Notes under the pieces: generated by a model | Databases searched by the model: none | What the model saw: the letters and a program-made list of their open reading frames with translations, nothing else | Told to the model about the DNA's origin: nothing | Made by a program: the position numbers and the translations under genes | IMG/VR virus record: IMGVR_UViG_3300027887_000560 | Source of the DNA: a virus | Direction: 5' to 3' (one strand) | Length of the DNA: 64,000 bases | Shown here: positions 8,519 to 34,708 of the stretch, in pieces | How positions within the stretch are numbered: position 1 is the first letter of the stretch | How the letters are laid out: every line of letters begins with the position of its first letter

Positions 8519-9043
8519 ATGGTTTCGTGCTACAATCACGGCATGTTCGACAGGGAAATTCGTGATCGCGTACAGGTGTTCGGTCGCCGCTTCTATGCTC
8601 AACCGACCTACCGGGAAGAGCTGGAGCAGGCATTGGGGCGCGAGGTTCTGTCGCCCCGTATCCCGCCGGCTCGTGAGCTGGCATTGATTGACCGCTATCC
8701 CAGGTTGTTTCCGGATGCGTTCGTGGACCGTCGCCGGGAGATGCCTCGTCCGTTCGGCGAGTTCGGTATCGATGTGTTCGTCGGCTGGCTGCCGCTGGTC
8801 GAGGGTGTCCTGGAGAAACTGTCTGGGTACGACGATGTCATCGTCGTGCAGATCAAGGAGAAGTTCGGGGCGTTGACGATCTACGTTGGTGATCCTCGGA
8901 GTCGGGATGAGGTGCATGCGATCACGACGGCCGCGCGCCAGGAATCCGTGCGCATTTGCGAGTTCTGTGGCAAGCCGGGGCAGAATCTTCGTGGTTCCGA
9001 TGGTTGGTTCAAGACGATGTGCGCGACTTGCCGGGCGGGCTAG
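8519..9043 (+). CDS. hypothetical protein with C-terminal zinc ribbon
   Basis: ORF diverging from the RHH gene; C-terminal CEFCGKPG...CATC. Confidence 0.35.
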   Translation: MVSCYNHGMFDREIRDRVQVFGRRFYAQPTYREELEQALGREVLSPRIPPARELALIDRYPRLFPDAFVDRRREMPRPFGEFGIDVFVGWLPLVEGVLEKLSGYDDVIVVQIKEKFGALTIYVGDPRSRDEVHAITTAARQESVRICEFCGKPGQNLRGSDGWFKTMCATCRAG

Positions 9044-10214
9044 GCACGAAATCGGTGGGGGAGATCTTTGTCAGTTCGGGTTGCGAAGGCGGACTGACGG
9101 CACGATCTTCCGGAGCGAGCGGAATGATCTCGTCGGGCTCCGGATCGGGCAGGACGAATTCCCGAGTGGGCAGACGTTGGTTTTCATCCACGATGCCGGG
9201 GATGTGGTTGCGGGCGCCCTGGCAGAACTCGACGATATCCATGCCCAGGCGCTTGGTCTTGGGATCCAGGTTGCTGATCTTGATGGCCAGCATGAGCTTC
9301 TGGGTGCGTTCGATCCCGGATACCGTCCAGAGTTTCTCGGGCTTCCTGGTTGCCGATGGCTTCTTGAGCTGTGCGAGGGCCACGTCGGCGGTGATACGGT
9401 GTTGACCCAACCATCGTCTCAGGTTCTTGATGGCCTCGATGGGGTTCATGACCGACAGCTTGACGAGGATGTCGAGCGGTATCCTGTCGCCGCGTTGCCA
9501 GGATTGCAGCACCTCGGGCGGCAAGCGGTCCATGCATCCCAGCAACCGGTTGATGTAGTCCAGGGTGTGGCTGGACTTGCGCGCGAATTCCTCGGGCTTG
9601 ACGTGAAATCGATCGCGCATCATCTTGGCGGCGTTCGCCAGCTCGTAGGTCGAGAGCTTTTCCCGAGCCGTGTTCTCGATGATGTTGATCCAGTATTCCT
9701 CGGTCTCCGGTGTGTCGATCGGAAGCACGATGGCCGGGATCTCTTGCCAGCCGAGGCGGCGCACGGCGACCGTGCGGCGGAAACCGGCGCGCACATAGTA
9801 GTGCTCGGTCACGGGGGCCTCGACGACCACGATGGGTACCTTCAAGCCTTCGAGGTTGATGCTGGTTTGCAGCTCGCCCAGGCTGACAGGATCCATGGTC
9901 AGCCGGAAGTTCTTGAAGTTCGGATCGTCGAGGATCGTGTCGAGCCGGATGAGACGGGTCTCGGAGAAGTTGCGTGTCGTGCAGTTTTCGCCCTGGGGGC
10001 CGGTGATCTCGATGAGGCGTTCGATGCGATGCTGGGCTTCACGCTTGGCGAGCGCAACCCTTGCCCGGTCGGCCAGGGGGTTGTGCCGGTTGATGGGTAT
10101 GAGATTCTGTGGTTCGGGATCGGGTTCGGCGGGCGCGGTCGTGGGAAGCCCAAGCATCGCCTTCAATTTCTCAAGGGCGATGGTGGGATCGGTCTTGGGT
10201 GAGACGTAAGGCAT
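9009..10214 (-). CDS. ParB/Srx-like nuclease-domain protein
   Basis: ParB N-terminal-domain pattern KVPIVVVEAPVTEHYYVRAGFRRTVAVRRLGWQEIPAIV (GxxRxxA arginine patch), with a roughly 250 aa C-terminal extension; start at internal Met MPYVSP. Confidence 0.6.
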   Translation of the reverse strand: MPYVSPKTDPTIALEKLKAMLGLPTTAPAEPDPEPQNLIPINRHNPLADRARVALAKREAQHRIERLIEITGPQGENCTTRNFSETRLIRLDTILDDPNFKNFRLTMDPVSLGELQTSINLEGLKVPIVVVEAPVTEHYYVRAGFRRTVAVRRLGWQEIPAIVLPIDTPETEEYWINIIENTAREKLSTYELANAAKMMRDRFHVKPEEFARKSSHTLDYINRLLGCMDRLPPEVLQSWQRGDRIPLDILVKLSVMNPIEAIKNLRRWLGQHRITADVALAQLKKPSATRKPEKLWTVSGIERTQKLMLAIKISNLDPKTKRLGMDIVEFCQGARNHIPGIVDENQRLPTREFVLPDPEPDEIIPLAPEDRAVSPPSQPELTKISPTDFVPSPPGKSRTSS

Positions 10215-10245
10215 GGAGTGCTGCCTCCGTGACGGTCGTTGGTTT

Positions 10246-11943
10246 TCAGACGGCGAGCTTGAGCTGCGCGGGTGGTTTGCGCACGAGATCTTGTTCGGGA
10301 TGTCGGTTGAGTACCTTGTCCAAGACATCCTGCTTGGCGATGATTCGCTTGGACATGTTCACGTCGATGGTGCCGTCGAGGACCAGGTGGATGATGTGGA
10401 CCATCTTCTTCTGGCCGATCCTGGCCAGACGATCTTCGGCCTGGCTGACGATGGAGGGGTTCCAGTCCACTTCGACCAGGATGGCGGTCGAGGCTCGGTA
10501 GAGATTGAAGCCCACTGCCGTCTTGAGGCCCCCGATGAAGATGCGCGCGTCGCCCTCCTGGAAGCGCTTGACGGCCTTCTCGCGATCTGGTTTCGAGGTT
10601 TCACCGTGCAGTGTGACGGCCTGTTCGCCATAGTGTTCGGCGAGCTTGGCCAGGACATCCTGGTGGTGGGCGAAGATGACGAGCTTGTCGATCCCCGAGG
10701 CCAACACATCATCTATGTAGGCGATACAGGCGGGAAGCTTGGCGAGAGCCGTCTTGTGGCGGAATTCGCTCATCTCGGTGAAGGCGACGCCGATGAAGTC
10801 GTCGAGGGCCTGGATGGCAGCCTTGTACTCCTCGTTGGTCTTGGCGGCCTCCAGGGCGCCCAGGCGAGCTTCGTAGTCGGCATCGTAGAGCTGCTTCCAG
10901 CGTTGGAAGTCAGGATCCAGCGACCAGTCGATCTCGGAATCTCCGAGCACGACGAGTTGCCGGCGCTTCGGGGGCAGCTCCTTGAGCACGTCGGCGCGTC
11001 GGCGCCGGATCATGAAGCTGGCGCGCAGGCGTTGTTGCAGCTCGCCCAGGTGGGTTGCGCCCGTGTCGATGGTTCTACCGCCTTGCCGGTGAAGGCCGCA
11101 GTAGCGATGGGCGAATTCGATCCAGTTGCCGAACTTGGCGGGACAGATGGCGGCGGCGATCGTCCAGATCTCCTTGGGATAGTTCTCGACTGGCGTTCCG
11201 GTCAAGAACAGGCAACGGTGAGATCGTTGCATGAGGCCGTTTTCGCCAAGTACGGCTTGCGTGCGCTGGGCATTGGGAGTCTTGAGAGCGTGAGCCTCGT
11301 CGCAGATGAGCACGTCCCAGATGCGTTCGAGAGATCGTGTGAGCGGCGATTCCCTGATGAGCTTTTCGTAGTTCACGATGACGAGGAGGTTGTCACGTTC
11401 GGGGATAATGGTTCGCCCCGACTTGGCGATCACGATCTCCCGGTCGTCCACCAACCATTTCTCAGCCTCGTTTCGCCAGTTGAACGATAGCGTGTCCGGT
11501 GCAACGACAAGGACGTTTTTGGGGCGTAGGAGATTCAGGAATCCTAATGCCTGGATCGTCTTTCCCACTCCCATCTCGTCACCGAGCAAGGTGTCCTTGT
11601 GGTCGCGTATGTAAGCGATGCCGGCTTTCTGGAATGGCAAATACGCGAGACCTTGGGGGCAGGGGATTATGATGTCGGCGTCCACCGCCCGAGATCGCTC
11701 CAGCTTCTTGAGGTGCTCCTTCATCGCCGCGAGCGCCAGGGTGTTACAGTAGGATTTGAGTCGCGTGGCCGCCTCGACGCGGTTTGACCAGAAGCGGTTA
11801 CCTATGTTCGCGCGACAAGCCTTGCAATGGCTGTCTTTTCGACACATGGAGGGTTCGTGCAGCTCGAAGCCGGCACGGCGAAGGGCGCCGCGTTCGTCGG
11901 GTTTGTCCACGACGAAGATGCCTTTCCAGTAGGTAATGATCAT
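10246..11943 (-). CDS. SNF2-family DNA helicase/translocase
   Basis: Motif I GDEMGVGKT, motif II DEAH (LICDEAHALK), LFLTGTPVEN, and helicase-C motif VI QAEDRLARIGQ; N-terminal Cys-rich segment (CRKDSHCKAC). Confidence 0.85.
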   Translation of the reverse strand: MIITYWKGIFVVDKPDERGALRRAGFELHEPSMCRKDSHCKACRANIGNRFWSNRVEAATRLKSYCNTLALAAMKEHLKKLERSRAVDADIIIPCPQGLAYLPFQKAGIAYIRDHKDTLLGDEMGVGKTIQALGFLNLLRPKNVLVVAPDTLSFNWRNEAEKWLVDDREIVIAKSGRTIIPERDNLLVIVNYEKLIRESPLTRSLERIWDVLICDEAHALKTPNAQRTQAVLGENGLMQRSHRCLFLTGTPVENYPKEIWTIAAAICPAKFGNWIEFAHRYCGLHRQGGRTIDTGATHLGELQQRLRASFMIRRRRADVLKELPPKRRQLVVLGDSEIDWSLDPDFQRWKQLYDADYEARLGALEAAKTNEEYKAAIQALDDFIGVAFTEMSEFRHKTALAKLPACIAYIDDVLASGIDKLVIFAHHQDVLAKLAEHYGEQAVTLHGETSKPDREKAVKRFQEGDARIFIGGLKTAVGFNLYRASTAILVEVDWNPSIVSQAEDRLARIGQKKMVHIIHLVLDGTIDVNMSKRIIAKQDVLDKVLNRHPEQDLVRKPPAQLKLAV

Positions 11944-12883: not shown

Positions 12884-13009
12884 TCAAAGAAATCTTGAAA
12901 AAGATATTGACCGCTCGATTGAGCGCGCGTACCGTGCTCTCGCTGGACTCAAGAGCCAGCAAGCCGGGCCACGGTGGCACCGGTATCACCACCCACAGAG
13001 GAGATCCCT
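12884..13009. promoter_or_regulatory. AT-richer divergent intergenic region, likely promoter(s)
   Basis: About 125 nt gap between divergent genes; noticeably AT-richer than its surroundings, with repeated TTGAAT and a TTGACC hexamer; strong RBS (gaggagat) just before the 13010 start. Confidence 0.3.
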
Positions 13010-13501
13010 ATGGCAGCCAACAACACCAAGTCCGCAACTCCCTCCGTCCGCGCGCCCGAGGGCTTCCGCCGGGTCGGTTCCGCGAGCAATGCTCCGTGGT
13101 TCCACCTGGCCGAAGGCAATCAGATGCAAGGCGTGCTCATCAACGTGTTCGAGCGTCCGGACGAGCGGACCGAGAGCAAGACCTCGAAGTTCTTCCAGGT
13201 CGAGCTGCTCGCGCCCACCAAGGTCCGCGAGGGCAAGGGCGAGAAGGCGGCGGTGGTCGAGGCGTCGGCCGGTACGATCATCAACGTGAACTGCAACGCG
13301 AAGACCAAGGAATTCGAGTCGCTCATCCCCGAGATCGTGCGCGGCGCCGAGTACCAGGTCTTCGTTCACGTCGGCAAGAAGTTCCCGATCTCCAAGGGTC
13401 GTTCGATGTGGGACATCACCGCCGCCGTGAAGCTGGTCAAGCCGGCCATGGCGACCGATCAGCCCGACTTCGCGGATGACGAAGAAGCGACCGTGGAGTA
13501 A
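13010..13501 (+). CDS. hypothetical protein with acidic C-terminal tail (164 aa); possibly abundant
   Basis: Strong RBS, AT-rich upstream region, terminator hairpin downstream of the operon; the C-terminus ends DQPDFADDEEATVE. Confidence 0.45.
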   Translation: MAANNTKSATPSVRAPEGFRRVGSASNAPWFHLAEGNQMQGVLINVFERPDERTESKTSKFFQVELLAPTKVREGKGEKAAVVEASAGTIINVNCNAKTKEFESLIPEIVRGAEYQVFVHVGKKFPISKGRSMWDITAAVKLVKPAMATDQPDFADDEEATVE

Positions 13502-13503
13502 CC

Positions 13504-13716
13504 GTGCCTCGGCCCGTAGTGATACGGGTGAGCTACAATGCCGATGTCGCCTATCTGCTACGACTTTCCGAGGCGTGTGGGCGAGATTCTCGGCAACCCG
13601 AGGCTTGGAAGCGTCGCGAGGTGCGTCTGAACCGCCTTTACGTGCAGCATTTGATGAAGGCCGTTCAAGATTCCGCAGGTGGTCCGAAGAAGAAGCCCGA
13701 GGGTGTCAGGAAATGA
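13504..13716 (+). CDS. hypothetical protein (70 aa)
   Basis: ORF immediately after the 13010 gene. Confidence 0.3.
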   Translation: MPRPVVIRVSYNADVAYLLRLSEACGRDSRQPEAWKRREVRLNRLYVQHLMKAVQDSAGGPKKKPEGVRK

Positions 13717-13740
13717 GTGTAGCTCGCGTGTAAGACAGCG

Positions 13741-13795
13741 GCGAAGCCGGCGAAGCGGGGGTCATCCGTTCCCGTTTCGCCGGCTTTCGTCGGTT
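13741..13795 (+). terminator. stem-loop, candidate intrinsic terminator
   Basis: Inverted repeat cgaagccggcgaagcggg ... cccgtttcgccggctttcg (about 17 bp stem, one mismatch, 11 nt loop) directly after the 13010-13716 operon; no clear U-tract. Confidence 0.4.
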
Positions 13796-13903
13796 ACGTT
13801 GCGCTAGACGCGCCAGTTCGTAGGTTGCCTGTTGTGCTTCCGTGCTTACGGGAGCAGAATTGGCGGCTGCCGTTGCAAGTTCGCCGTTCGCTGGAGGTTT
13901 GCC

Positions 13904-14428
13904 ATGTCCGATACCCCACCCCTGTCAGATGGTGCAAGTCCGGGAAGCGAAGCCAAGGATGATGTTGGACAGCCCGTGGTATGGATCTCGTTCTGTCCAG
14001 AGCTTGGCCTCTATCACTATCACAATGAATCGGATCCAAACGAGGATCCTCTCGACACGAAGTTCACGCGCGAGGGGCTCCTGGATGTCGTAACGGGATT
14101 GATGCAATCCCAGCGCGTGAAGGACGCTCAAGATCTCGCATTCATGTGTGCCTGGGGTCGTCTCTTCGCGCACAAGATCGTGGTGTTCTATACCTCGGGA
14201 ATGTTCCGGGTATTCAATCCGTTGCCAATTCCCGATTCGGAGAAAGAGGAGAGCGCCGACATGCGAGAGTTTCTCGCGGACTGGAAGCGGAAGTACCCGA
14301 CTTCCGAATCGGTGCCCGTGGTCGCCGATTATCCATCGGTGGCAAAACGCAAGCTTGAAGAGGAGGAGAAGTCCGATCAGCAGCTTGCTGCCGAGATCGG
14401 GGTTCAGCATGGAGAAGATCCCAAGTAA
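13904..14428 (+). CDS. hypothetical protein (174 aa)
   Basis: Internal Met of ORF 13832..14428; immediately precedes the ATPase gene. Confidence 0.4.
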   Translation: MSDTPPLSDGASPGSEAKDDVGQPVVWISFCPELGLYHYHNESDPNEDPLDTKFTREGLLDVVTGLMQSQRVKDAQDLAFMCAWGRLFAHKIVVFYTSGMFRVFNPLPIPDSEKEESADMREFLADWKRKYPTSESVPVVADYPSVAKRKLEEEEKSDQQLAAEIGVQHGEDPK

Positions 14429-14437
14429 CCAGGTCGC

Positions 14438-16318
14438 GTGATGATCAGTCGCCGTCTTACGGGTGGATTGTCATCCGGCCGACCGGGTTCTGTTGGACGT
14501 TCGGGGATCGGCCGCTCGTCGGTCGGTCGCCCGACGTTCGATGATGCGGACGAGTCCGTGAATGTCGAGCGCCGGTTGTCCAGGTCGCCGATCTATGAAG
14601 GGAGTGGTCCTTTCACGGGGGCCATGCCTCGTGCACAGCCTCCCAGGCTCCTGCGTGATCAGCTCTACGATCGGATGTGTGACTGGCGAGCGCACACGAT
14701 CGCCGAGATGGAGTCCTGGTTGCCGGGCAACAAGTGGGTGGAGGCCATGATCGATCTCATCACGTTTGGTTTTGCCTTCGAGCGTGAAGTGAGAGCCGAT
14801 GGGTGCCGAGCCTTGCGTCTGCGAAAGCGTGAGCCGTATGAGAGACGCCAGCAGGTGGTGGACATTCTCTCGGGCATGACGTTGCCCGATCGTATCGTGA
14901 CGTTGCCCGGTGCGGTGTTGCCACCAATCACGAGTCGAACCGAGGAGGTGGTCGAACCCAGGGCGAGCAGGGAGTTCGTCGATGAAGGACAATGGACTCC
15001 ACCACCCGATATCGAGCGCATGGTGCTCGATACGAGTGGTGACATTGTGCTCTCGGTGCCCGATCTCGTGACCGATACCATAGGTATCCTGGCTCGTAAA
15101 GGTGCGGGCAAGACGTACCTGGCCATGGTGATCGCCGAGGAGTTCCTGGCGAGCACGTTCTCCATTCCTTTCGTGGTCCTGGATCCCATGGGCGTGTGGT
15201 GGGGGCTCCTGTCCGATGTCGAGGGAAATCCGACCGAGCGCAGACTGGTGGTGTTCGGAGGCGCGCACGGGCACTATCCGCTCACGTCCAGGGATGGTGG
15301 GATCATGGCCAAGATGGTCGTGGCCTGTCGTCCCTTGCCGTTCGTGTTCGATCTGTCGGCATTTCCGCGCGAGGAGCAGCATCGTTTCTGTGCCGACTTT
15401 TCCGCCGAACTGTTCCTGGTCAACAAAGAGCCGTTGCACATTTTTCTCGACGAGGCGGATGGTTTTGCGCCCCAGCGGCTCGAAGGCAAGTCATCGAGGC
15501 ATCAGAAACGATCGCTGGCCGAGATCGACTGCCTGGTGCGCCGGGGACGCGTGCATGGGCTCGGCATGACGCTCATCACGCAGCGACCTGCGGTGATCTC
15601 GAAGAACGTGCTCTCCCAGGTGGGCGCCATGTTCTTCCTGGAAACCGGAGCACCGCACGATCTGCGTGCCATCGACGATTGGTTGCATGACCGTATCACC
15701 GAGGACGTGCGGCGCCAGTGTCGAGAGGAGTTGCCCGTGTTGGGTCCGGGGCAAGCGTTCTACCTGCGTGGGGGCGAGCATTACCGGTTCTGCAAGTTCA
15801 CGGTGCGATCGAAGAAGACCTATGATTCCTCGCTCACCCCGCGTATCGGTGACAAGCGTCCCGTTGCCAAGACCTACGCGCTCACGGATGAAGATCGCCG
15901 GTTGCTGGACGGGGCGATGGCTGCCGCGCGCTCCGGGGTGTTCGTGGCGGCGAATGCCGGTGATCTGTATAGTGATGATCCGGTGCAACGACCATCCGGT
16001 GTTCCGGCTGGTGAATCCAGGGCGAGCACGGACGATCTGTATAGCGACGATCCTGTTCCGGGGGCTGGTTCGGCGAGTGAAGTCGGGAGTGGTGATCCGG
16101 GTGGTGTCGATGATCCCGACAGTGACGCGGATGTTGGTTCAGGTGATGGGGAGAATGACGGCGCAGATAGCACAGTGGATGACGATGCATCGGATGACTC
16201 TTCATCAGATCTCGATGATTCGGATGAATCGGATGATTCGGATGAACCAGATGATTCGGGGGCGTCGGATGATGAGTTCGATGAGTCGTCGCCCGATTCC
16301 GAACAGAGGGATGAATAG
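14438..16318 (+). CDS. HerA/FtsK-superfamily P-loop ATPase with poly-acidic C-terminal tail
   Basis: Walker A GILARKGAGKTY; Walker B HIFLDEADGFAP; HerA/VirB4-type segment LITQRPAVISKNVLSQVGAMFFLE; last roughly 100 aa are Asp/Ser/Glu repeats (DSDESDDSDEPDDS). Confidence 0.65.
   Translation: MMISRRLTGGLSSGRPGSVGRSGIGRSSVGRPTFDDADESVNVERRLSRSPIYEGSGPFTGAMPRAQPPRLLRDQLYDRMCDWRAHTIAEMESWLPGNKWVEAMIDLITFGFAFEREVRADGCRALRLRKREPYERRQQVVDILSGMTLPDRIVTLPGAVLPPITSRTEEVVEPRASREFVDEGQWTPPPDIERMVLDTSGDIVLSVPDLVTDTIGILARKGAGKTYLAMVIAEEFLASTFSIPFVVLDPMGVWWGLLSDVEGNPTERRLVVFGGAHGHYPLTSRDGGIMAKMVVACRPLPFVFDLSAFPREEQHRFCADFSAELFLVNKEPLHIFLDEADGFAPQRLEGKSSRHQKRSLAEIDCLVRRGRVHGLGMTLITQRPAVISKNVLSQVGAMFFLETGAPHDLRAIDDWLHDRITEDVRRQCREELPVLGPGQAFYLRGGEHYRFCKFTVRSKKTYDSSLTPRIGDKRPVAKTYALTDEDRRLLDGAMAAARSGVFVAANAGDLYSDDPVQRPSGVPAGESRASTDDLYSDDPVPGAGSASEVGSGDPGGVDDPDSDADVGSGDGENDGADSTVDDDASDDSSSDLDDSDESDDSDEPDDSGASDDEFDESSPDSEQRDE
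16193..16300 (+). repeat. short tandem coding repeats (gat tcg gat gaa ...)
   Basis: Visible repetition gatgattcggatgaatcggatgattcggatgaaccagatgattcgg encoding the acidic tail of the ATPase. Confidence 0.45.
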
Positions 16319-17361
16319 TGGCCAGGCGTAAAATTCGCTTCAAGACGATTCCGGTAAAGGCGTACTGGAATTACACTGCTGCCGGCGATCGTTATCGTGT
16401 ACCAGCTCACAAGCGAAGGATTGCTGTTCCGGTCGTTGCCAAGGTTCCGGTCAGGAAACCCGTTATCAAGGTTCCACCACGGAAACCTAGCATCAAGGCG
16501 CCAGCACGGAAACCTGTTGTCAAGGCTCCAGTACAAAAACCTGTTGTCAAGGCTCCGGTAAAGAAGACACCAGGTAAGGTTCCGGTCAAGAAACCTGCTC
16601 CCAGGAAACCGGTACGAAAGCCTCCGGTCAAGAGGCCGGAGAAGAAGCCAGTCATCAAGAAGCCGGTCAGAAAGCCTGTCAAGAAACTGGCAGTCAAGAA
16701 GCCTGTCAGGAAACCGGTTGCCAAGAAGCCTGTCAAGAGACTCAAGAAGAAGCTTCCGAGGGGACCAAAGCGAAAGAAGATTAAGAAAAAGTACCCACCG
16801 TTCATTCGCCGGGCGATGGTTGCCGAGAACCTGATTCAAGAGAAGCTGTTTCGCATGTTGAATCACCTTGAGATCACGGATGCCGGGTTACAGATGTCCG
16901 TCCGGTCTTTCATCAACAGCGATTCCACGGTTGATGGCGAGCTGCGCATTTCCAACTTGCCGGATGAATGGCGAACCCTTGAGGGGTTACCGCTCATCAT
17001 CTCGGCCCTGTCGCTCGCCATAGATGCGATGGGTGCGTTCACGCAGGATGAGGCCATGGGGGGAAGGTTCTGGGTGTCCTTCGGTCTGCGGTTCGGTCCG
17101 AAGAATCAGGCCGAGATCGAGGAGATGGCCAAGTTCTACAAGCGGTTCCGGGGACTGTTCCAGGTCGGGGCGCACCATGCTTCGGCGCACGATACGGGTG
17201 CCATCAAGACCAATGCCCTGGCCATCCGTCTGTTCGTCGAGAACATCTGGGCGAAGCGTGATCTGCCACCCGTGCAGATCTTGGTGCGTTTCGTGTGGAC
17301 GCCAACCAAGAAGAATCCAGGTCGCGATGCCAAGGAAATCGGTGGCCGTTATGCCGAGTAG
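16318..17361 (+). CDS. Lys/Pro-rich repeat protein (histone-H1-like N-terminus) plus C-terminal globular domain
   Basis: Residues about 40-165 are KPVVKAPV / KKPVRKPV repeats; about 180 aa non-repetitive C-terminal domain of unknown function. Confidence 0.5.
   Translation: MARRKIRFKTIPVKAYWNYTAAGDRYRVPAHKRRIAVPVVAKVPVRKPVIKVPPRKPSIKAPARKPVVKAPVQKPVVKAPVKKTPGKVPVKKPAPRKPVRKPPVKRPEKKPVIKKPVRKPVKKLAVKKPVRKPVAKKPVKRLKKKLPRGPKRKKIKKKYPPFIRRAMVAENLIQEKLFRMLNHLEITDAGLQMSVRSFINSDSTVDGELRISNLPDEWRTLEGLPLIISALSLAIDAMGAFTQDEAMGGRFWVSFGLRFGPKNQAEIEEMAKFYKRFRGLFQVGAHHASAHDTGAIKTNALAIRLFVENIWAKRDLPPVQILVRFVWTPTKKNPGRDAKEIGGRYAE
16438..16798 (+). repeat. tandem 24-27 nt coding repeats
   Basis: For example aaacctgttgtcaaggctccagtacaaaaacctgttgtcaaggctccggtaaag; encodes the KPV-x-K-x-P repeats. 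Confidence 0.55.
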
Positions 17362-17370
17362 GAGGACCAC

Positions 17371-18021
17371 ATGACCATCAAGGAATTCATGGAGAGGACG
17401 CATGCTACGGCCGTCGCCAAGGGGTGGTGGGAAAGGGACGAGCGAACCGGGGCGCTGAAACCTCGTAACGAGGCCGAGATGCTGGCGCTCATGCACAGCG
17501 AGATCGCGGAGGCCCTGGAAATTCACCGGATGCCGTTGCGAAAGCTCTCGGATCTCTGGATGACGGAGACGGCTGGTGGAGGATCGGTGTCCGACGAGGA
17601 GCTGGCCTGGCTCGTGTCGGGCAAGCGTCCGGAGGGCACGGTCGAGAGCAAGCCGGAAGGGTTCATGGTCGAGATCGCGGATCTGATGATCCGGATCGCC
17701 GACACCTGCGAGGCTATGAAGATCCCTCTCGATGTGGTGCTGTGCAACACCGATGTTTCACGGCTGGGCTGGGGGCGCGAGAAGCTCGGAGCCAATGTGG
17801 TCGAGGCGCTCCAGCACATGAACGTGTGTCTGGTTTATGCGTACAACGGGTTGCAGAACGGTCGCGTCGAGGACACGGTGGCCGAGGCGTTCGCGGAGAT
17901 TTTCCAGACCTGTGGACAGATCGCCAGCGAGCTGGCGAATCTGTCCCTGGAGTACGTGCTCGTCTGGAAGATGCGGTACAACGATACCCGGCCCCATCGT
18001 CACGGCAACAAGAAGTGCTAG
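17371..18021 (+). CDS. MazG-like nucleoside triphosphate pyrophosphohydrolase
   Basis: LALMHSEIAEALEIHR and EGFMVEIADLMIRIADTCEAMKIPLDVVL match the all-alpha MazG/NTP-PPase helices with EExxE/D metal ligands. Confidence 0.55.
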   Translation: MTIKEFMERTHATAVAKGWWERDERTGALKPRNEAEMLALMHSEIAEALEIHRMPLRKLSDLWMTETAGGGSVSDEELAWLVSGKRPEGTVESKPEGFMVEIADLMIRIADTCEAMKIPLDVVLCNTDVSRLGWGREKLGANVVEALQHMNVCLVYAYNGLQNGRVEDTVAEAFAEIFQTCGQIASELANLSLEYVLVWKMRYNDTRPHRHGNKKC

Positions 18022-18027
18022 GTCGTC

Positions 18028-18258
18028 ATGGCCCGGATGTCGAGTTATGCCCTGGGTGACGATGCCGTGGATGGCGGTTTTCATGTTGCCTGGATCAAGA
18101 AGACGAAGGTTGGTTTGAAGCTCGTCGATGAGCGGTACGGCAAGAGGTGGAAAAGTCGTGATGATCTTCTGGGTGCCATGCAGTCGTGGATGTCGCTTCA
18201 TGCTCTGTTCATCAGGGTTGACGGCGACGTGGCGATCTTCGAGCCGAAGGACTACTAG
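18028..18258 (+). CDS. hypothetical small protein (76 aa)
   Basis: ORF between the MazG and PolB genes. Confidence 0.3.
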   Translation: MARMSSYALGDDAVDGGFHVAWIKKTKVGLKLVDERYGKRWKSRDDLLGAMQSWMSLHALFIRVDGDVAIFEPKDY

Positions 18259-18266
18259 GTTTTTGA

Positions 18267-20381
18267 ATGGCTGAATTCGGTCCCATCAACACCGATCGTA
18301 AGCTCCGGAGCTTCGGGGTGCTCGACCTTGAGTGGGTGCCCGGCGAGGTGTTGCCCATGCCGGAGAGCACGGTGCTCGAAATCGATGGCATCCAGACGCC
18401 GCTCATCATCAACCTGCCGCCGGTCAAGACGCGCACGGCTCCCTTGCAGCTCAGGCTTGCCGGGTATTACGACCAGCAGCCCGAGTGCGAGGATGAGGAC
18501 GAGCCTGTGATGGTCGAGCGCTACGAGGTTTTCAAGAGCGTGGCCGAGCTGATTGATTTCATGTTCGTGGGTGCTCATCGGGGCATGTGGTTCTTCGCGC
18601 ATGCCGGGGGCCTGTTCGACATGGAATTCGTGCTCGACGAGCTGCTCAACCAGATCAAGGAGTCACTGGCTTCCCGGCGGCAGCGTTCGCGGACGGTGTA
18701 CGATGCGGAAGGAAGGAAGTGCGAGGAGACCATCACGGCGACGGGGCCGGAGAAGGATGCGCCGACCTGGACGATCAAGGCAGCATTCTCGGGATCGTCG
18801 GCCATCATCATCCATGTCAACAAGGGGAAGAACACCTGGCACTGCGTGGACTCCTACTGGTTGTTCCGGGACAAGCTCTCGAAGATCGGCGAGAGCATCG
18901 GGATCCGGAAGCTCGACGAGGAGAAGCGCAGGACGCCCGAGGAGACCCGGAGATACTACGCCGAGACGCCGCTTGAGACGCTGATCCCTTATAACAAGGT
19001 CGATTGCGAGATCTTGTGGAAGGCCATCGCGGGCTTCGAGAAGGAGGTGCTCGGGCTCGGCGGGCAGCTCCAGCAGACCATCGCCTCGACGGCGATGAAC
19101 CTGTTTCGCCGGGCGTACCTGAAACGGACGATTCACACCTCGGAGATCTTGAATCAGATCGCCGTCAAGAGCTACTTCGCATCCCGTGTCGAGGTCTTTC
19201 AGCGACATGTCGAGGATTTCTTCATTTACGACATCAATTCGTCGTTTCCGTATTCGATGACTTTTCCGTTGCCGGCTGATCTGATCGAGATGGGGACGAC
19301 CATTCCGGAAGACGACGACGATTCGTGTATTTACCTGGCGGATGCCACCGTCGAGGTTCCCGAGATGGCGGTACCGCCATTGCCTTTCCGGACGACGGAA
19401 GACAGTCGTGTGTTTTTTCCCGTCGGCAAGTGGCGCTCCTGGTTCACATCGACCGATCTGCGGCTGGCGTTTCGCGAGGGTTGCACGATCCACAAGGTGC
19501 ACGAGTGTTACCGGTTCGAGCCGTTCGAGGATTTTGGCGAGTACGCCAGGCAGATCTACGCCATGCGCGCGGCGTCGGACAACCCGTTTCGCAAGCTGCT
19601 CTTGAAGTACCTTCTGAATTCGCTGTACGGCAAGGCGGCCGAGTCCCTGATGAAGCAGGAGATGCTCATCAACCCGAGCGAGGACGATCTGGATCGCACG
19701 CAGTTGCAGATGTTGCAGCCGGGGATCTGGTTGCGTGAGAAAGAGGTGGCCATTGCTCATCGTCACGTAGTGGTGTCTTCCGTCATCACGGCATTGTCTC
19801 GCCGACATCTCTATGACTATGCCAAGATGTGTGAAGAGCAAAAGAAACCAATCTATTACTGTGACACTGACAGCGTGGCAACGAGAGCGACATTGCCAAC
19901 CGATCCAAAGAAGCTTGGTGCCTTGAAGCTGGAAAAGAAGATGGACTGGACCGAGTTCGTGGCTCCCAAGATCTACCGGGGAGAGGGTGCCGAGTTGAAG
20001 GGCGACGGCACCTGGAAGGACGTGAAGCTGGCCAAGGCCAAGGGGTTCTCGCTCGGCAAGTTCGACAGTCCCATCGAAGCCCTGGGTAGGATCATCGACG
20101 GCCAGCAGGTGGGGGTCCAGTCGATGGTGCGCATGCGCGAGCTTTACCGCTCGACCACCGAGGAGCACGCGGAAAGCGCGCCTTACGAACGTCTCGTGAT
20201 CAAGGCGCTCACGCAACGGATGCTCTCGAAGCGGTTCTTCTATCCGGACGGGCACACGCGCGCCTGGACGACCGATGAGATCCTGTCGGGCGACTTCCAG
20301 ACCCAGGGCTTCGATTTCAGCGAGGAGTTCATGAACCAGCTCGATACCACGACGCGGGCGATGCTGGAGGCTGCGGTATGA
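18267..20381 (+). CDS. family B DNA polymerase (704 aa; size and motifs consistent with protein-primed pPolB)
   Basis: Exo I VLDLEW, Exo II HAGGLFDMEF, Exo III YNKVDCE, motif A DINSSFPYS, motif B KYLLNSLYGK, motif C YYCDTDS. Confidence 0.9.
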   Translation: MAEFGPINTDRKLRSFGVLDLEWVPGEVLPMPESTVLEIDGIQTPLIINLPPVKTRTAPLQLRLAGYYDQQPECEDEDEPVMVERYEVFKSVAELIDFMFVGAHRGMWFFAHAGGLFDMEFVLDELLNQIKESLASRRQRSRTVYDAEGRKCEETITATGPEKDAPTWTIKAAFSGSSAIIIHVNKGKNTWHCVDSYWLFRDKLSKIGESIGIRKLDEEKRRTPEETRRYYAETPLETLIPYNKVDCEILWKAIAGFEKEVLGLGGQLQQTIASTAMNLFRRAYLKRTIHTSEILNQIAVKSYFASRVEVFQRHVEDFFIYDINSSFPYSMTFPLPADLIEMGTTIPEDDDDSCIYLADATVEVPEMAVPPLPFRTTEDSRVFFPVGKWRSWFTSTDLRLAFREGCTIHKVHECYRFEPFEDFGEYARQIYAMRAASDNPFRKLLLKYLLNSLYGKAAESLMKQEMLINPSEDDLDRTQLQMLQPGIWLREKEVAIAHRHVVVSSVITALSRRHLYDYAKMCEEQKKPIYYCDTDSVATRATLPTDPKKLGALKLEKKMDWTEFVAPKIYRGEGAELKGDGTWKDVKLAKAKGFSLGKFDSPIEALGRIIDGQQVGVQSMVRMRELYRSTTEEHAESAPYERLVIKALTQRMLSKRFFYPDGHTRAWTTDEILSGDFQTQGFDFSEEFMNQLDTTTRAMLEAAV

Positions 20382-20608
20382 CGACGCGGCGGCCCTGTCG
20401 GCTCGACGAGATGATGACGGCCTACGAGCGGCTCGTGATCATGCAGACGCTCGAACGCAACCGGTGGAACCGTGGCAAGGCCGCCCAGGCGCTCGGGATC
20501 TCGCGGCGTCGGTTGCAGTACCGGATGAAAGCCTTGCACTTCGATCTGGGCGCGATCCCCAGGGATGTGCCGGGGCGGCGTCTGCGCGTCGGCAAGGAGG
20601 GTGGGTAG
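20378..20608 (+). CDS. Fis-type helix-turn-helix DNA-binding protein (76 aa)
   Basis: ERLVIMQTLERNRWNRGKAAQALGISRRRLQYRMKAL is a canonical Fis/NtrC C-terminal HTH; start overlaps the PolB stop. Confidence 0.5.
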   Translation: MTTRRPCRLDEMMTAYERLVIMQTLERNRWNRGKAAQALGISRRRLQYRMKALHFDLGAIPRDVPGRRLRVGKEGG

Positions 20609-20950
20609 ATGGTTGACCTGGCGGCGGAGCAGGGTGAGCTGCGATACGAAGTCTGGGCCGAACGACTGGAGCGCGAGTTCTCGTTGCTTCTGATCCCGTT
20701 CATGGATCCCAAGCTCACGACCGAGAAGATCCGGATCATTTCTGCCCGGATGGCCATGCTGGCGGCCAAGCGCGCCAGGCAGGCATCGGCGCTTGACGAC
20801 GACGATGAGCGCGTCGTGAAGTGTGCGAGCTGTCAGACCAAGCTGATCCAGACCGTCTCGGCATCGCTTTGCTGTGGTTGTTTGCGCAGGTTCAAGTTGA
20901 TCTCCGACGACGATCCCAGAGTCCGAGATCTTGCCGATGAAAAAAGTTGA
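20609..20950 (+). CDS. hypothetical protein (113 aa) with C-terminal Cys cluster
   Basis: KCASCQ...CCGCLRRF. Confidence 0.35.
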   Translation: MVDLAAEQGELRYEVWAERLEREFSLLLIPFMDPKLTTEKIRIISARMAMLAAKRARQASALDDDDERVVKCASCQTKLIQTVSASLCCGCLRRFKLISDDDPRVRDLADEKS

Positions 20951-28053: not shown

Positions 28054-29322
28054 ATGGCCCTGCCTGTCGTACAAAACATGCCCTTGCCCGAGCTGGATGA
28101 TGCGGATCCCGTGCCAAGCGTCTCGTTGCATGTGCTGGCCAAGAATGCCGAAAGTGTCATCGGGCGGTTGATCGACAACATCGGTCCCTACGTCCAGGAG
28201 ATGAGGTTCATCCTGAACGATACGACCGATCACTCTCGCCGGGTCGTGGAGCGGAAACTCGGGGAGTGGCCGAGGCCGATGTCGTTCGACATTCAGGAGA
28301 TCACGGCGGAGAACCATCCCGAGCTGTACTTTCTCGATGAGGTTTCATCGTATCGTGTGGGCAAGTCGCTTTCCGACGAACAGTTCGAGGGGCCGTGTAC
28401 CGGTAAACCGTTGCTCTGCGACTGGGCGGCGATCCGGAACCTCGGCTGGGAATCGAGCTGTGACTGGCGACTGTTTCTCGATGTCGATGATGTCGTCGAG
28501 GATCCTCGCCGACTGCCGGCGCTGGTGACGATGCTCGACCGGCAACGCGTGGATCTGGCGGCGACGCGCTACGTGTTCGGGCGCAACGATGCTGGCGTGG
28601 CCAACTCGGTCTCGTACCGGGAGCGGCTGGCCAAGAACCTACCGGCCATACGCTGGGAAGGCAGCACGCACGAGATCTTGGTCGGTGGTCTGCGTCGAGT
28701 GCTCATCGAGGATTGCTTCCAGGTCGTGGATCTCAAGGATAACTGGGGCAAGGGAACCCGCGTGCCAGGGCGCTGCTTCAAGGTTCTCTATCGCGAGGCG
28801 AGGATGGCCGGCTGGGATACGGTCACGCCTCGCCATCTGGCGTATCTCGTGCAAGAGAGCCCTAAGATGATGCCCTTGGTATGGGTTACCGGTGTTCTTT
28901 TGCCGTTCTATCTAGCTCGCTGTGTGCATGGTGAAGAAGCGGCCTGGGTATTGTCGATGGTTGCCGAGATGCACGAGCAAGCTGGTGAGTTGCTGAAAGC
29001 CGAGAAGTTGCTTGTCGATGCGTTGAAGCATTACATGGCTTCCAAGGCAGCGTTCCGCCTATGTCGAGTGCGGTTCCTTCTCAATGACTGGCAGGGGTGT
29101 ATCGAGGCTTACAAGATGGGTTTGCTTTATCAGTCGTCGGCGCAGGTGTTGGACATGGGGCCGGTCTATGTGCATTCGAGCAAGCTCCTGGTGGCCCAGT
29201 CGTACTTCGAGCTGGGTGACATGGCCATGGCCAGGGAGACGATCGATGAGGCCGTGACGGCTCTGGGCGATACGGCCACGCCCATCGTCCGGGAGTTGCA
29301 GGCAGCCATTCATTCGGGGTGA
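28054..29322 (+). CDS. family-2-like glycosyltransferase with C-terminal TPR-like helical domain
   Basis: SVSLHVLAKNAESVIGRLIDNI N-terminal pattern, DWAAIRN and DxD (LFLDVDDVVED); paralog of 34709..35818. Confidence 0.5.
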   Translation: MALPVVQNMPLPELDDADPVPSVSLHVLAKNAESVIGRLIDNIGPYVQEMRFILNDTTDHSRRVVERKLGEWPRPMSFDIQEITAENHPELYFLDEVSSYRVGKSLSDEQFEGPCTGKPLLCDWAAIRNLGWESSCDWRLFLDVDDVVEDPRRLPALVTMLDRQRVDLAATRYVFGRNDAGVANSVSYRERLAKNLPAIRWEGSTHEILVGGLRRVLIEDCFQVVDLKDNWGKGTRVPGRCFKVLYREARMAGWDTVTPRHLAYLVQESPKMMPLVWVTGVLLPFYLARCVHGEEAAWVLSMVAEMHEQAGELLKAEKLLVDALKHYMASKAAFRLCRVRFLLNDWQGCIEAYKMGLLYQSSAQVLDMGPVYVHSSKLLVAQSYFELGDMAMARETIDEAVTALGDTATPIVRELQAAIHSG

Positions 29323-29897
29323 ATGTGTCCAGGGATCCGCAGATCTTGACCAAGCGACAGAACTACCGGCTATGGCAGTCGGGGGAGTTTGGTAACAAGC
29401 TGCGGGCGTGGCCTTCGGTCGATGCGTGGCGCGCAAGTGGTTTCACCGGTCGGGTGGTGTTGCGCGCCCTGTTGCCCGTCGGTGGCGGACCATGTCGCTA
29501 CAACCTGGAGCCCGACGAGGTCGAGCGCACAGTTGGTTACTGGCTCGCGGACGGCATGCATCGGGATGCCATCATGGTCAACGAGGCCGCCCCCGATCAG
29601 GCGGCCATCTTGCAGGGCGAGTATCTCAACGGCATCGTTGGCGCCTACTGGAATTGCTTGCACTACAGTCGGGTAGCCGCGCACATGCGCATCGCGCTTG
29701 GTGCCGAGATGCTGTTCGCCAACGGCATGATGTCCGATCTGCTGTTGCGTGAGGCCATGACACCATCGTCCTACGAGGACTGGCGGTTGCTCCTGGAGCG
29801 GTATCCAGGACATGTGCTGGAGGTTTCCATCTACAATCGTTGTGTCGGGGATATTCCCGGTCGCAACGCGCTCGTCTGGGAGGTTCGACGGTACTAG
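29319..29897 (+). CDS. hypothetical protein (192 aa)
   Basis: ORF. Confidence 0.35.
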   Translation: MNVSRDPQILTKRQNYRLWQSGEFGNKLRAWPSVDAWRASGFTGRVVLRALLPVGGGPCRYNLEPDEVERTVGYWLADGMHRDAIMVNEAAPDQAAILQGEYLNGIVGAYWNCLHYSRVAAHMRIALGAEMLFANGMMSDLLLREAMTPSSYEDWRLLLERYPGHVLEVSIYNRCVGDIPGRNALVWEVRRY

Positions 29898-29935
29898 CTT
29901 TCATATCTGGGTCACCGGGAGACAAGGAGAACAGG

Positions 29936-30892
29936 ATGGCAAGACACATCGTACAGGCTGCGGAAGAGTTGCTCGACAAGCGGTTCCCCGTTCTCGATCA
30001 CGGGTTCGTGATCTTGGTCGATTACATGGGCAGTGATGCCGCCATCGCGGAGGCCGCGCGCCAGTCGCTCGCGGGCGAGAACACGCGCAAGGTGTCCGAC
30101 GATCGCGCTCTCATCCGTTACCTCATGAGCCATTTGCACACGAGTCCGCTGGAGATGGTGGAGTTCAAGTTTCACTGCGCCATGCCGATTTTCGTGGCCC
30201 GTCAGTGGATTCGCCACCGCACGGCCAACGTCAACGAGCAGTCGGGACGTTATGGCGAGATGCCCGAGCTGACCTACGTGCCCGAGGCCGAGCAGATCGC
30301 CTATCAGAGTCCCGTGAACAAGCAGGGGCGTGGCGGTCTGGCGACACCCGAGGTTGCCGCCGTTGTGCAAGGGATGTTGCGTGCGTCCAACGTTACGGCG
30401 TTCTCCGACTATCACGAGTTCCTGGGGCACTCCGGGGATGTCAGGCACATGTTGATGGACCATCCGGATGCGGCAAATGAGATTGCCCAGAACGGCGGCA
30501 TCTCGCGCGAGGTGGCTCGCATCAACCTGCCGCTCTCGACCTATACGCAATGGTACTGGAAGCTGGATCTGCACAACCTGCTGCACTTCCTCTTCTTGCG
30601 GCTCGACGAGCACGCGCAGTGGGAGATCCGTCAGTACGCCAAGGTCATGGCCGAGATGGTGCAGGCCGTCTGTCCCATGGCCTGGGAAGCGTTCGTGGAC
30701 TACCGGCAGAAGGCCATCCGGTTGTCGTTGCCCGAGATAGAAGCTCTCCATGTGCTCATCACGCAGTTTCATTTGGGCCAGCCGTCGTCGCTCGAAGGTC
30801 ACGAGACTCGTTTGAACAAGCGGGAGCTGGAGGAGCTTCGTACCAAGCTCGGACCGACGATGCTGGGTCTTGGTTTCCTGAACGGGTTCTGA
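29936..30892 (+). CDS. thyX: flavin-dependent thymidylate synthase ThyX
   Basis: ThyX signature RHR-x7-S-x-R: QWIRHRTANVNEQSGRY; length and flanking FKFHCAMPIFVARQ consistent. Confidence 0.85.
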   Translation: MARHIVQAAEELLDKRFPVLDHGFVILVDYMGSDAAIAEAARQSLAGENTRKVSDDRALIRYLMSHLHTSPLEMVEFKFHCAMPIFVARQWIRHRTANVNEQSGRYGEMPELTYVPEAEQIAYQSPVNKQGRGGLATPEVAAVVQGMLRASNVTAFSDYHEFLGHSGDVRHMLMDHPDAANEIAQNGGISREVARINLPLSTYTQWYWKLDLHNLLHFLFLRLDEHAQWEIRQYAKVMAEMVQAVCPMAWEAFVDYRQKAIRLSLPEIEALHVLITQFHLGQPSSLEGHETRLNKRELEELRTKLGPTMLGLGFLNGF

Positions 30893-34261: not shown

Positions 34262-34708
34262 GATCATGCCAGGACAGGTGCGTGAGTATGGAGGTCTCAA
34301 ACTCGGGGAGGAGGTACGTGTGCTCGCGCGATCTCTAGCACCGGGGACGGGAAGCCCCTGGATGGTGGCCAAGGTCAGAAGGCTCGGTCCTGCCGGGTTT
34401 CTGGTACGGGGGCTCGCCACCTGTTTTTGCTGGGAAGACGAGAACGTGCGCTGGGTTCGCATCGAAAGGACGGGGCATGATCGAAGACGATGAACCGCTC
34501 GAACTTGTAGCTGTTTCCGGGTATGTCGAGCCGGTCTGCGGGAAGGATATGACCGTGAGCTGTGTGCCGGCGATCTGTCGGAGGGCGCCTGGTCATGATG
34601 GTGAGTGTTCGGTGCTCACCGAGGAGGATTGTCGGATGATCGATGGAGAGGCCAGGGAGATGCTCAAGCGGCTCTTCCCGGATGGTCTGGTTCCATCATG
34701 GTGAGTCC

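Follow-up and report, generated by a model that had tools for sequence, protein, structure and literature searches.

The locus described here raises the question of which task a HerA/FtsK-type ATPase performs amid the replication genes of a virus. It is carried by the IMG/VR virus record IMGVR_UViG_3300027887_000560, of which the whole analysed stretch of 64,000 nucleotides (nt) is referred to as the window in the following. The ATPase gene spans positions 14438-16318 on the + strand, starts with GTG and encodes 626 amino acids (aa); an ATG one codon later (14441) is the start used by public gene callers, which gives a protein of 625 aa. An earlier annotation made from the letters of the window, the sequence-only reading, had placed the product in the HerA/FtsK superfamily and had considered it a potential packaging or segregation motor. 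From our analysis we conclude that the product is a member of the FtsK/HerA superfamily, that it belongs neither to HerA proper nor to the terminases, the FtsK/SpoIIIE/TraB translocases or the coupling proteins, and, as a tentative proposal, that it acts as a translocase at DNA ends or forks within a machinery for protein-primed replication or genome processing.

Membership in the superfamily is evident from motifs as well as from fold. The Walker A motif (ARKGAGKT, aa 218-225, nt 15089-15112) and the Walker B motif (LHIFLDEAD, aa 333-341, nt 15434-15460) are present as predicted from the sequence, and so is the ITQRP...LSQ segment (TQRP at aa 381-384 and LSQ at aa 392-394; TQRP...LSQ at nt 15578-15619). 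The residues G223, K224, D337, E338, R382 and Q393 are invariant columns in an alignment of 50 family members. The protein passes the Pfam model of the DUF87/HerA central domain with 26.9 bits (cut-off 23.2 bits), PADLOC HerA models match the ATPase core with E-values down to 2e-14, the PADLOC MADS mad8 model covers the whole core (E = 5e-9), and the PDB sequence matches comprise HerA chains only (9x1l, E = 1e-6). HerA models of NCBIfam match the core as well, but below their equivalog cut-offs (39 bits versus 970), and the NCBIfam anti-phage HerA models give 22-23 bits versus cut-offs of 800-850. A Foldseek comparison of the AlphaFold2 (AF2) model with the PDB retrieved HerA-NurA, Sir2-HerA and Sulfolobus HerA at E = 1e-11 to 1e-13 with a probability of 1.00, a probability which was also reached by STIV2 B204 (TMt 0.71-0.75). 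The lines of evidence from Pfam, NCBIfam, PADLOC, PDB sequences and Foldseek therefore agree with the earlier superfamily assignment. A chance open reading frame (ORF) is not a concern, since 520 homologues were found at E ≤ 1e-5, and a protein identical to that of the window (P0001) is carried by 6-7 independent contigs. By homology with other members of the superfamily, the ATPase is expected to form hexamers and to translocate DNA.

The domain architecture was derived from the alignment of the 50 family members together with the AF2 model, which has a mean pLDDT of 76 and values above 90 in the core. The protein is composed of the following segments:

14438-14632, + strand: disordered Arg/Gly/Ser-rich N-terminal arm, aa 1-65, according to composition and pLDDT < 50
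14645-14872, + strand: winged-helix (winged helix-turn-helix) domain, ~aa 70-145, with a predicted H-E-H-H-E-E topology in the AF2 model (pLDDT > 90), conserved in the family alignment
14966-15937, + strand: RecA-like HerA/FtsK ATPase core, aa 177-500, according to motifs, pLDDT > 90 and structural matches
15938-16315, + strand: disordered polyacidic tail, aa 501-626, according to composition and pLDDT < 50

Within the N-terminal arm, the family alignment reveals a short conserved R-x-L-x-x-(S/T)-P-I-Y-E motif. A short acidic linker connects the winged helix to the ATPase core, and the end of the core is marked by a conserved T(F/Y)DSSxTP motif, which is followed by a helix. When the winged helix was searched with phmmer against 1.84 billion representative proteins, 10 clusters were recovered, all of which belong to this ATPase family; judged by sequence, the domain is private to the family. 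A HAS barrel, which characterises HerA proper at its N-terminus and serves there as the docking site of partner enzymes, is not present in the AF2 model, in which the disordered arm and the winged helix form the N-terminus and three short strands precede the core. The check for such a barrel proposed by the sequence-only reading thus ended with a clade-specific winged helix in its place. We also considered a domain permutation, but a profile built from the N-terminal winged helix gave no match when the C-terminal parts of the sister proteins described below were searched with it. Versions of the protein that are longer, namely P0072 (838 aa) and long ORFs in IMG/VR, contain no extra Pfam domain that could be informative as a fusion.

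The second hallmark of HerA proper, a partner enzyme, is missing as well. No Sir2, NurA or DUF4297 Pfam domain was found within 10 kb on either side of the gene in the window and in six relatives, and a PADLOC scan of ten neighbours revealed nothing except a generic SNF2 helicase similarity, so that the partner whose presence was to be checked was not recovered by either approach. Because HAS barrel and partner are both missing, the ATPase is not HerA proper. The identification as a large terminase has its sole support in the name of phrog_2666 (‘terminase large subunit’, E = 7e-13). This alignment is limited to residues 210-487 of the ATPase core and all other libraries call the protein HerA; we rejected the terminase identity because the match spans the core only, without a nuclease domain. 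Indeed, the C-terminus consists of the disordered acidic tail, whereas a terminase with an RNase-H-like nuclease at this position had been named as the finding that would speak against the superfamily assignment. The same applies to coupling proteins with transmembrane helices: none is evident in the ATPase, the highest 19-residue hydropathy window (1.69) being located inside the ATPase core, and Pfam gave no FtsK_SpoIIIE (PF01580) or TraG/VirD4-type match. Neither Pox_A32 nor another packaging-ATPase family was among the Pfam matches (E ≤ 1).

The most conspicuous part of the protein is its C-terminal tail. As stated by the sequence-only reading, the last 100 residues (aa 527-626) are rich in Asp, Ser and Glu: they contain 32 Asp, 8 Glu and 21 Ser, no Lys and 2 Arg, which amounts to 61% Asp/Glu/Ser and a net charge of -38 (-41 for aa 501-626), and the region is predicted to be disordered in the AF2 model. 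That the tail is unusual holds true only in part, since an acidic C-terminus is a feature of the whole family (the last 15 residues are net negative in 100 of the 105 relatives, and the median tail charge is -10), while the version of the window is the longest and most acidic, with 161 residues past the TYDSS motif and a charge of -39. Likewise, the suggested origin in short tandem DNA repeats applies to about 80 nt (16177-16259; periods 9/18 and 15), whereas the remainder is of low complexity without being repetitive. The length of the tail, whose variation the sequence-only reading had proposed to check, ranges from 35 to 161 aa across relatives, but slippage at the strain level was rejected because all seven contigs with the P0001 allele are identical. 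On account of its differing gene calls, one contig (L003) had seemed to show slippage of the repeats, either those of the tail or those of the basic partner protein, yet its DNA is 100% identical to that of the window.

The gene is located in a tightly packed + strand block (12974-20950) with intergenic distances of -4 to +12 nt and, as its sole sizeable gap, 187 nt between the genes for a 70-aa and a 174-aa ORF. The following genes form the cluster, including its divergent arm on the - strand:

9009-10328, - strand: ParB_N-domain protein (Pfam), divergent arm, conserved in relatives
10246-11943, - strand: SNF2 helicase (Pfam), divergent arm, conserved in relatives
12974-13501, + strand: 175-aa protein resembling single-stranded DNA-binding proteins (SSB-like), the first + strand gene of the cluster, upstream of HerA in nearly all loci according to alignment
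13504-13716, + strand: 70-aa ORF, present in most relatives, without a Pfam or PHROG match
13904-14428, + strand: 174-aa ORF directly upstream of HerA, present in most but not all relatives according to alignment
16318-17361, + strand: Lys/Pro-rich partner of 347 aa, whose GTG start overlaps the HerA stop
17371-18021, + strand: MazG-like nucleotide pyrophosphatase (phrog_3301 ‘pyrophosphatase’, E = 2e-27)
18267-20381, + strand: family B DNA polymerase (PolB) of the protein-primed type (PF03175, E = 3e-29; phrog_1907, E = 6e-41)
20378-20608, + strand: Fis-type HTH_8 DNA-binding protein (PF02954, E = 9e-13), conserved in position

Among 31 metagenome loci and contigs from IMG/VR, ENA, NCBI and GTDB, the order ParB (-), SNF2 (-), then SSB-like protein, 70-aa ORF, 174-aa ORF, HerA, basic protein, PolB and HTH_8 is kept in every relative whose contig extends far enough, down to a HerA identity of 36%. 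The placement of replication genes next to the ATPase gene by the sequence-only reading is therefore confirmed, with the protein-primed-type PolB and the SSB-like protein belonging to one block, and the same is true for the immediate flanks. The 174-aa ORF ends 9 nt upstream of the HerA gene, and downstream, in the sequence TAGTG, the last base of the HerA stop codon is the first base of the start codon of the Lys/Pro-rich gene, i.e. the basic repeat protein of the earlier annotation. In terms of conservation, the HerA gene is linked most tightly to the genes for the basic protein and PolB, the former of which is situated directly 5' of the latter in some relatives. In the window, a further ORF of 76 aa lies between the MazG-like gene and PolB, and the HTH_8 gene overlaps the end of the PolB gene.

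Several of the neighbouring proteins show conserved features. The 175-aa protein has no Pfam, PHROG or PDB match, and its C-terminus carries an invariant P-D-F followed by an acidic tip, which resembles the partner-binding tips of SSBs; a role as SSB may be surmised from this. The 174-aa protein, for which no Pfam, PHROG, PADLOC or PDB match was obtained, has the invariant residues C31, Y37, H38, H40, E47, D51 and K53. The Lys/Pro-rich protein consists of a basic arm (aa 1-160, with 43 Lys, 18 Arg and a net charge of +59), whose length varies in relatives, and a conserved C-terminal domain of 190 aa, for which 37 homologues were found, all in the same clade. This domain is confidently predicted to adopt an alpha/beta fold that is apparently novel, and the invariant Tyr274 (within FYKRFRG) is placed in a flexible loop of the model; the protein is a candidate for a terminal protein or a DNA-coating protein. 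Scans for promoters and terminators near the HerA gene remained at background level, and a search for iterons or binding sites in its vicinity yielded only short repeats at chance level and one strong hairpin. The latter (13744-13786) has 16-nt arms with 94% complementarity and an 11-nt loop and lies inside the 187-nt gap.

The relatives of the ATPase fall into two groups, namely the orthologues, which retain the N-terminal winged helix, and the far more numerous sister proteins. The orthologous group was found in metagenomes only, mainly of the soil, peat and sediment type, and represents an uncultivated clade; to these is added one 9.7-kb contig binned into an archaeal metagenome-assembled genome (MAG). 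This contig (L093, DATKKG010000049.1), which carries the genes for ParB, SNF2, the SSB-like protein, HerA and the basic protein and was binned as part of a Conexivisphaerales archaeon MAG, represents either a binning artefact or a clue to the host. We found no description of the clade or of the ATPase subfamily in the searchable literature.

The sister proteins have a size of ~560-620 aa, match PF01935 and PF05872 and are annotated as ‘helicase HerA-like’ or ‘DUF87 domain-containing protein’. Their ATPase core is 37-45% identical to that of the window over residues 200-490, including the conserved post-core segment. It is located at the N-terminus and followed by an extension of ~300 aa, which, judging from its sequence, appears to end in a winged helix, and the N-terminal winged helix and the polyacidic tail are both missing. 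These proteins are encoded by ~77 IMG/VR phage contigs (36-100 kb), by many bacterial phyla and by actinobacterial plasmids, and their function appears to be unstudied. In the phages, the genes sit among genes for ParB, DnaB, DUF5131, methylases and integrases; ParB (HTH_ParB and ParB_N) is encoded upstream in 21 of the ~77 loci, and cytosine or adenine methylases are often nearby. Examples include UOF77576.1 (Caudoviricetes sp. MW202482), WP_012300357.1 (Clavibacter pCSL1) and WP_172975570.1 (M. avium p1-JPH1). The record of p1-JPH1 is flagged linear, and pCSL1 is, as we presume, also linear, although its PLSDB record reads ‘circular’. The phage MW202482, the sole GenBank phage matched, encodes a large terminase, a portal and a major capsid protein elsewhere in its genome, from which it follows that the nearest core relatives include proteins that are not packaging enzymes.

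Related contigs reach 113, 124, 151, 194 and 282 kb, so that the genome comprises at least 194 kb, of which the window represents about one third. The 151-kb contig is Ga0335069_10000097, that of 194 kb is Ga0214473_10000029 with 194,181 bp, and the longest is contig_65334 of ENA ERZ25039480. In 16 contigs (20-282 kb), the HerA gene is located 8.5-25 kb, typically 11-18 kb, from the upstream-side contig end, and this similar distance suggests a fixed genome terminus rather than random fragmentation. In the 194-kb relative (IMGVR_UViG_3300031949_000004), the first 158 nt (L176:1-158) recur in inverted orientation with 94% identity at a distance of 1.87 kb from the other end (L179:12580-12738, ~192.15-192.31 kb), and the final 1.9 kb are gene-free and contain a CCGCAAACCACCAA tandem repeat. 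Such an inverted copy is the expected assembler product of long inverted terminal repeats. The genome thus probably has a long inverted terminal repeat that was truncated by the assembler at one end, which would make it linear; the element as a whole is probably linear.

The polymerase was compared by tblastn with 50,697 phage records, in which it matched only Methanosarcina spherical virus, the tectiviruses Bam35/GIL01/AP50, Vibrio autolykiviruses and one archaeal virus, whose protein is annotated as ‘protein-primed DNA polymerase B’; phi29-like tailed phages were not matched. Genes for capsid, portal and terminase were searched for among ten large ORFs of the window (PHROGs) and in the regions 1-91 kb and 171-194 kb of the 194-kb relative, i.e. 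in ~115 kb of sequence of the clade, and none was recognised. That no terminase is seen in the window, as the sequence-only reading had pointed out, is correct for the ten large ORFs, but carries little weight because about two thirds of the genome lie outside the window. The regions 50.8-90.8 kb and 171-194 kb of the 194-kb relative, which add roughly 64 kb of sequence, contain nucleotide-metabolism genes, a toxin-antitoxin-like pair, a tRNA array and ORFans. The array comprises at least 19 tRNA genes within 5 kb (L184:15905-20847, ~77-82 kb), namely Leu (5), Arg (6), Ile (2), Val (2), Glu (2), Asp, Asn and Thr, and the sparsely coding region that follows may hold more. Just upstream of the array (L184:15296-15791), a RelE/ParE-like toxin and a ribbon-helix-helix antitoxin were recognised by eye.

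A number of further genes were noted on the element. A major-vault-protein (MVP) homologue at 62271-63998 on the + strand runs off the end of the window; its full-length orthologue on the 194-kb relative (L173:10019-12727) has 903 aa and matches MVP_shoulder (5e-19) and Vault_3 (5e-10). An MVP gene is unusual in a prokaryotic virus-like element. MVP homologues with 40-46% identity are present on two other large IMG/VR contigs, one of which (134 kb) also encodes a 1104-aa protein with a tail-sheath domain, a finding that is not transferable to the clade because this contig shares the MVP gene only. For a 418-aa ORF of the 194-kb relative (L266:16845-18098, ~173.7-174.9 kb), homologues among deposited phages are restricted to two jumbo phages, a 485-kb uncultured phage and the 344-kb Ralstonia phage RsoM2USA, and the sequence similarity hints at gene sharing with jumbo tailed phages. 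Between 26993 and 46400, the window contains a long run of glycosyltransferase-, radical-SAM/SPASM- and methyltransferase-like genes, mostly judged by eye, with PHROG matches to ‘beta-1,4-glycosyltransferase’ at 28054-29322 and 34643-35818; the run may represent a cell-surface or DNA-modification module. Also by eye, one gene was assigned as ThyX-like (29840-30892) and another as RtcB-like (51563-52729).

Taking the architecture, the cluster and the element together, our tentative preference is for a function of the ATPase in replication or genome processing. The protein would then be a ring-forming, ATP-driven DNA translocase that has been rebuilt for the replication or processing of the element's own genome and is co-expressed with the SSB-like protein and the protein-primed-type PolB. 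In place of the HAS barrel and the nuclease partner, the winged helix would bind DNA and place the motor on terminal repeats or origins, the ring would open DNA ends or drive forks on a linear, GC-rich genome that measures 190 kb or more, and the disordered polyacidic tail might act as a docking arm for the Lys/Pro-rich protein and/or the polymerase; for the basic partner, binding of the tail is proposed by analogy with acidic tails of other replication proteins. We prefer a replication role because the winged helix is private to the family, because the gene has a fixed place, with overlapping start and stop codons, between the SSB-like protein on one side and the basic protein and PolB on the other, because a nuclease or defence partner is missing, and because the core relatives co-occur with a terminase in at least one phage.

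Several points weigh against this interpretation. The protein-primed systems of phi29, PRD1 and adenovirus need no helicase, since their polymerases displace strands, and HerA enzymes are chiefly translocases on double-stranded DNA. The length of the acidic tail and that of the basic arm of the partner do not co-vary across relatives, as illustrated by P0058, which combines a tail of 46 aa and a net charge of about -2 with a basic arm of ~215 aa, and a simple charge-pairing model of tail and partner is thereby weakened. The evidence for the inverted terminal repeat consists of one 158-nt repeat (94%) in one contig. Further, no terminase, portal or capsid gene was recognised in the ~115 kb of clade sequence, the nearest cultured relatives of PolB are all from non-tailed viruses, and the single FtsK/HerA-type ATPase of such viruses is the packaging enzyme. 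The fold, finally, is nearly as close to that of packaging NTPases as to that of HerA proteins (STIV2 B204, TMt 0.71-0.75; Haloarcula virus PH1, TMt 0.72; corticovirus NTPase).

These last points lead to a different explanation, according to which the protein is the capsid-packaging ATPase of a very large non-tailed, tectivirus-like and membrane-containing virus whose linear genome is capped by terminal proteins. Recognition of the genome end or of the basic terminal protein would fall to the winged helix and the acidic tail, and the ring would pump the DNA into a preformed capsid. Apart from the structural similarity of the core to STIV2 B204, Haloarcula virus PH1, the corticovirus NTPase and A32-like proteins of nucleocytoplasmic large DNA viruses, this is in line with the cultured relatives of PolB, which are tectiviruses, autolykiviruses and Methanosarcina spherical virus only, all of them non-tailed and protein-primed, with the probable inverted terminal repeat, with the adjacent gene for a candidate terminal protein (the packaging motors of phi29 and PRD1 act on terminal-protein-capped DNA) and with the lack of a recognised terminase, portal or capsid gene, although a terminase could still lie within the other ~80 kb of the 194-kb relative. 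Nevertheless, we regard it as possible rather than likely. The known packaging ATPases of the PRD1 P9/A32-like lineage are single-domain proteins of ~200-300 aa, lack DNA-binding domains and are encoded with the structural genes, whereas the protein of the window has 626 aa and several domains, and its gene resides in a tight replication operon. Its core is closest in sequence to the phage and prophage HerA-like proteins, which co-occur with a terminase in MW202482, and a Pox_A32-type family match was not obtained. The element also shows hallmarks of huge phages, i.e. an array of 19 or more tRNA genes and an ORF whose homologues are confined to jumbo phages of 343-485 kb. According to a comparative review from 2021, no prokaryotic virus with A32/FtsK/HerA-type packaging is known to reach a large genome size (PMC7824862). 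The more specific proposal that the element is a jumbo tectivirus-like virus, linear, terminal-protein-capped, of at least 190 kb and with a tectivirus-type PolB, whose HerA-like protein drives capsid packaging and uses the winged helix to bind the genome end and the tail to bind the terminal protein, appears rather improbable to us.

Packaging or segregation, the functions originally suggested from the sequence, are thus both conceivable but not favoured, given the core relatives in phage and prophage contigs and the separate terminase of MW202482. As a pump for segregation, dimer resolution or DNA transfer, the protein would follow the design of FtsK and TraB, in which a motor is combined with a winged helix (the gamma domain of FtsK reads oriented motifs), and might read such motifs with its own winged helix; the motor would shift sister copies of the linear replicon or clear them, perhaps together with the ParB-like protein. 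The divergent arm of the cluster has a conserved ParB_N protein, ParB is found upstream of the gene in more than a quarter of the sister phage loci (21 of ~77), and sister proteins are encoded on the actinobacterial plasmids p1-JPH1, flagged linear, and pCSL1. However, the winged helix lies at the N-terminus and shows no sequence relationship to those of the sister proteins, there is no FtsK_SpoIIIE match, no transmembrane helix is evident, the ParB gene is not adjacent but 4 kb away on the opposite strand, the basic protein and PolB are the more tightly linked genes, and the local intergenic regions contain no repeated candidate recognition motif, all of which makes this explanation unlikely. 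A module for defence or counter-defence of the Sir2-HerA, DUF4297-HerA or MADS-like type would explain why the best-scoring named profiles are the PADLOC HerA models (2e-14), with mad8 covering the core (5e-9), and would fit the DNA methylases often encoded near the sister proteins. We rejected a defence-type HerA, which is highly improbable, since the partner is missing from the Pfam context of every relative within 10 kb and from the PADLOC scan of the ten neighbours, SNF2 similarity aside, and since the HAS barrel that would dock an effector is absent; the anti-phage HerA models of NCBIfam score far below their cut-offs, and the gene belongs to the constant core of a replication cluster and not to a variable island.

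The known tasks of HerA/FtsK motors comprise the resection of DNA ends, the segregation of chromosomes, conjugation, defence against phages and the packaging of viral genomes. The subfamily described here lacks the usual accessories of these motors, and its gene is a constant part of a replication cluster of the protein-primed type, embedded in an unusual large, probably linear element that is possibly of a new type. If the ATPase is a component of the replisome, protein-primed replication would for the first time be linked with a ring ATPase, which might explain how this mode of replication was scaled from 10-45 kb to ~200 kb; if it packages the genome, the tectivirus-like lineage would gain its first prokaryotic virus with a large genome. 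Whichever applies, the genes for HerA, for the overlapping Lys/Pro-rich candidate terminal protein and for the polymerase form a compact three-gene system that is amenable to testing.

Among the known systems, HerA proper provides the best matches in sequence and fold. The HerA-NurA complexes (4d2i, 9x1l/9x1m) and the Sir2-HerA and DUF4297-HerA complexes (8wiv, 8xau, 8ziq, 9c1m) share the RecA-like core, the Walker A and B motifs and the TQRP...LSQ segment with the ATPase of the window, which differs from them in lacking a HAS barrel and a nuclease or NADase partner, in its low score against the NCBIfam models (39 instead of 970 bits), in its additional N-terminal winged helix and polyacidic tail, and in its context, a viral replication operon. 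The closest relatives of the core are the HerA-like proteins of phages, prophages and plasmids, which are encoded on mobile elements amid DNA-metabolism genes and often near ParB. In contrast to the protein of the window, they have an N-terminal ATPase followed by the ~300-aa extension and are not linked to a protein-primed PolB.

The packaging ATPases of the PRD1 P9, STIV2 B204 (4kfr), sphaerolipovirus, corticovirus and poxvirus A32-like type share the fold, with a TM-score of 0.7-0.75 taken over the small proteins of the viruses, and the viruses encoding them carry protein-primed PolBs related to that of the window, whose gene lies 2 kb downstream of the HerA gene. The ATPase of the window is distinguished from these enzymes by its size of 626 aa, which includes the winged helix and the tail, and by the lack of a family-level sequence match. 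With E. coli SSB, T7 gp2.5 and the T7 gp4 helicase, the ATPase family shares an acidic C-terminus, which is an analogy only, as there is no sequence relationship. The acidic tails of such replisome proteins dock onto basic patches of polymerases and partner proteins, and the tail of the ATPase, with its 126 residues, is far longer than any of them.

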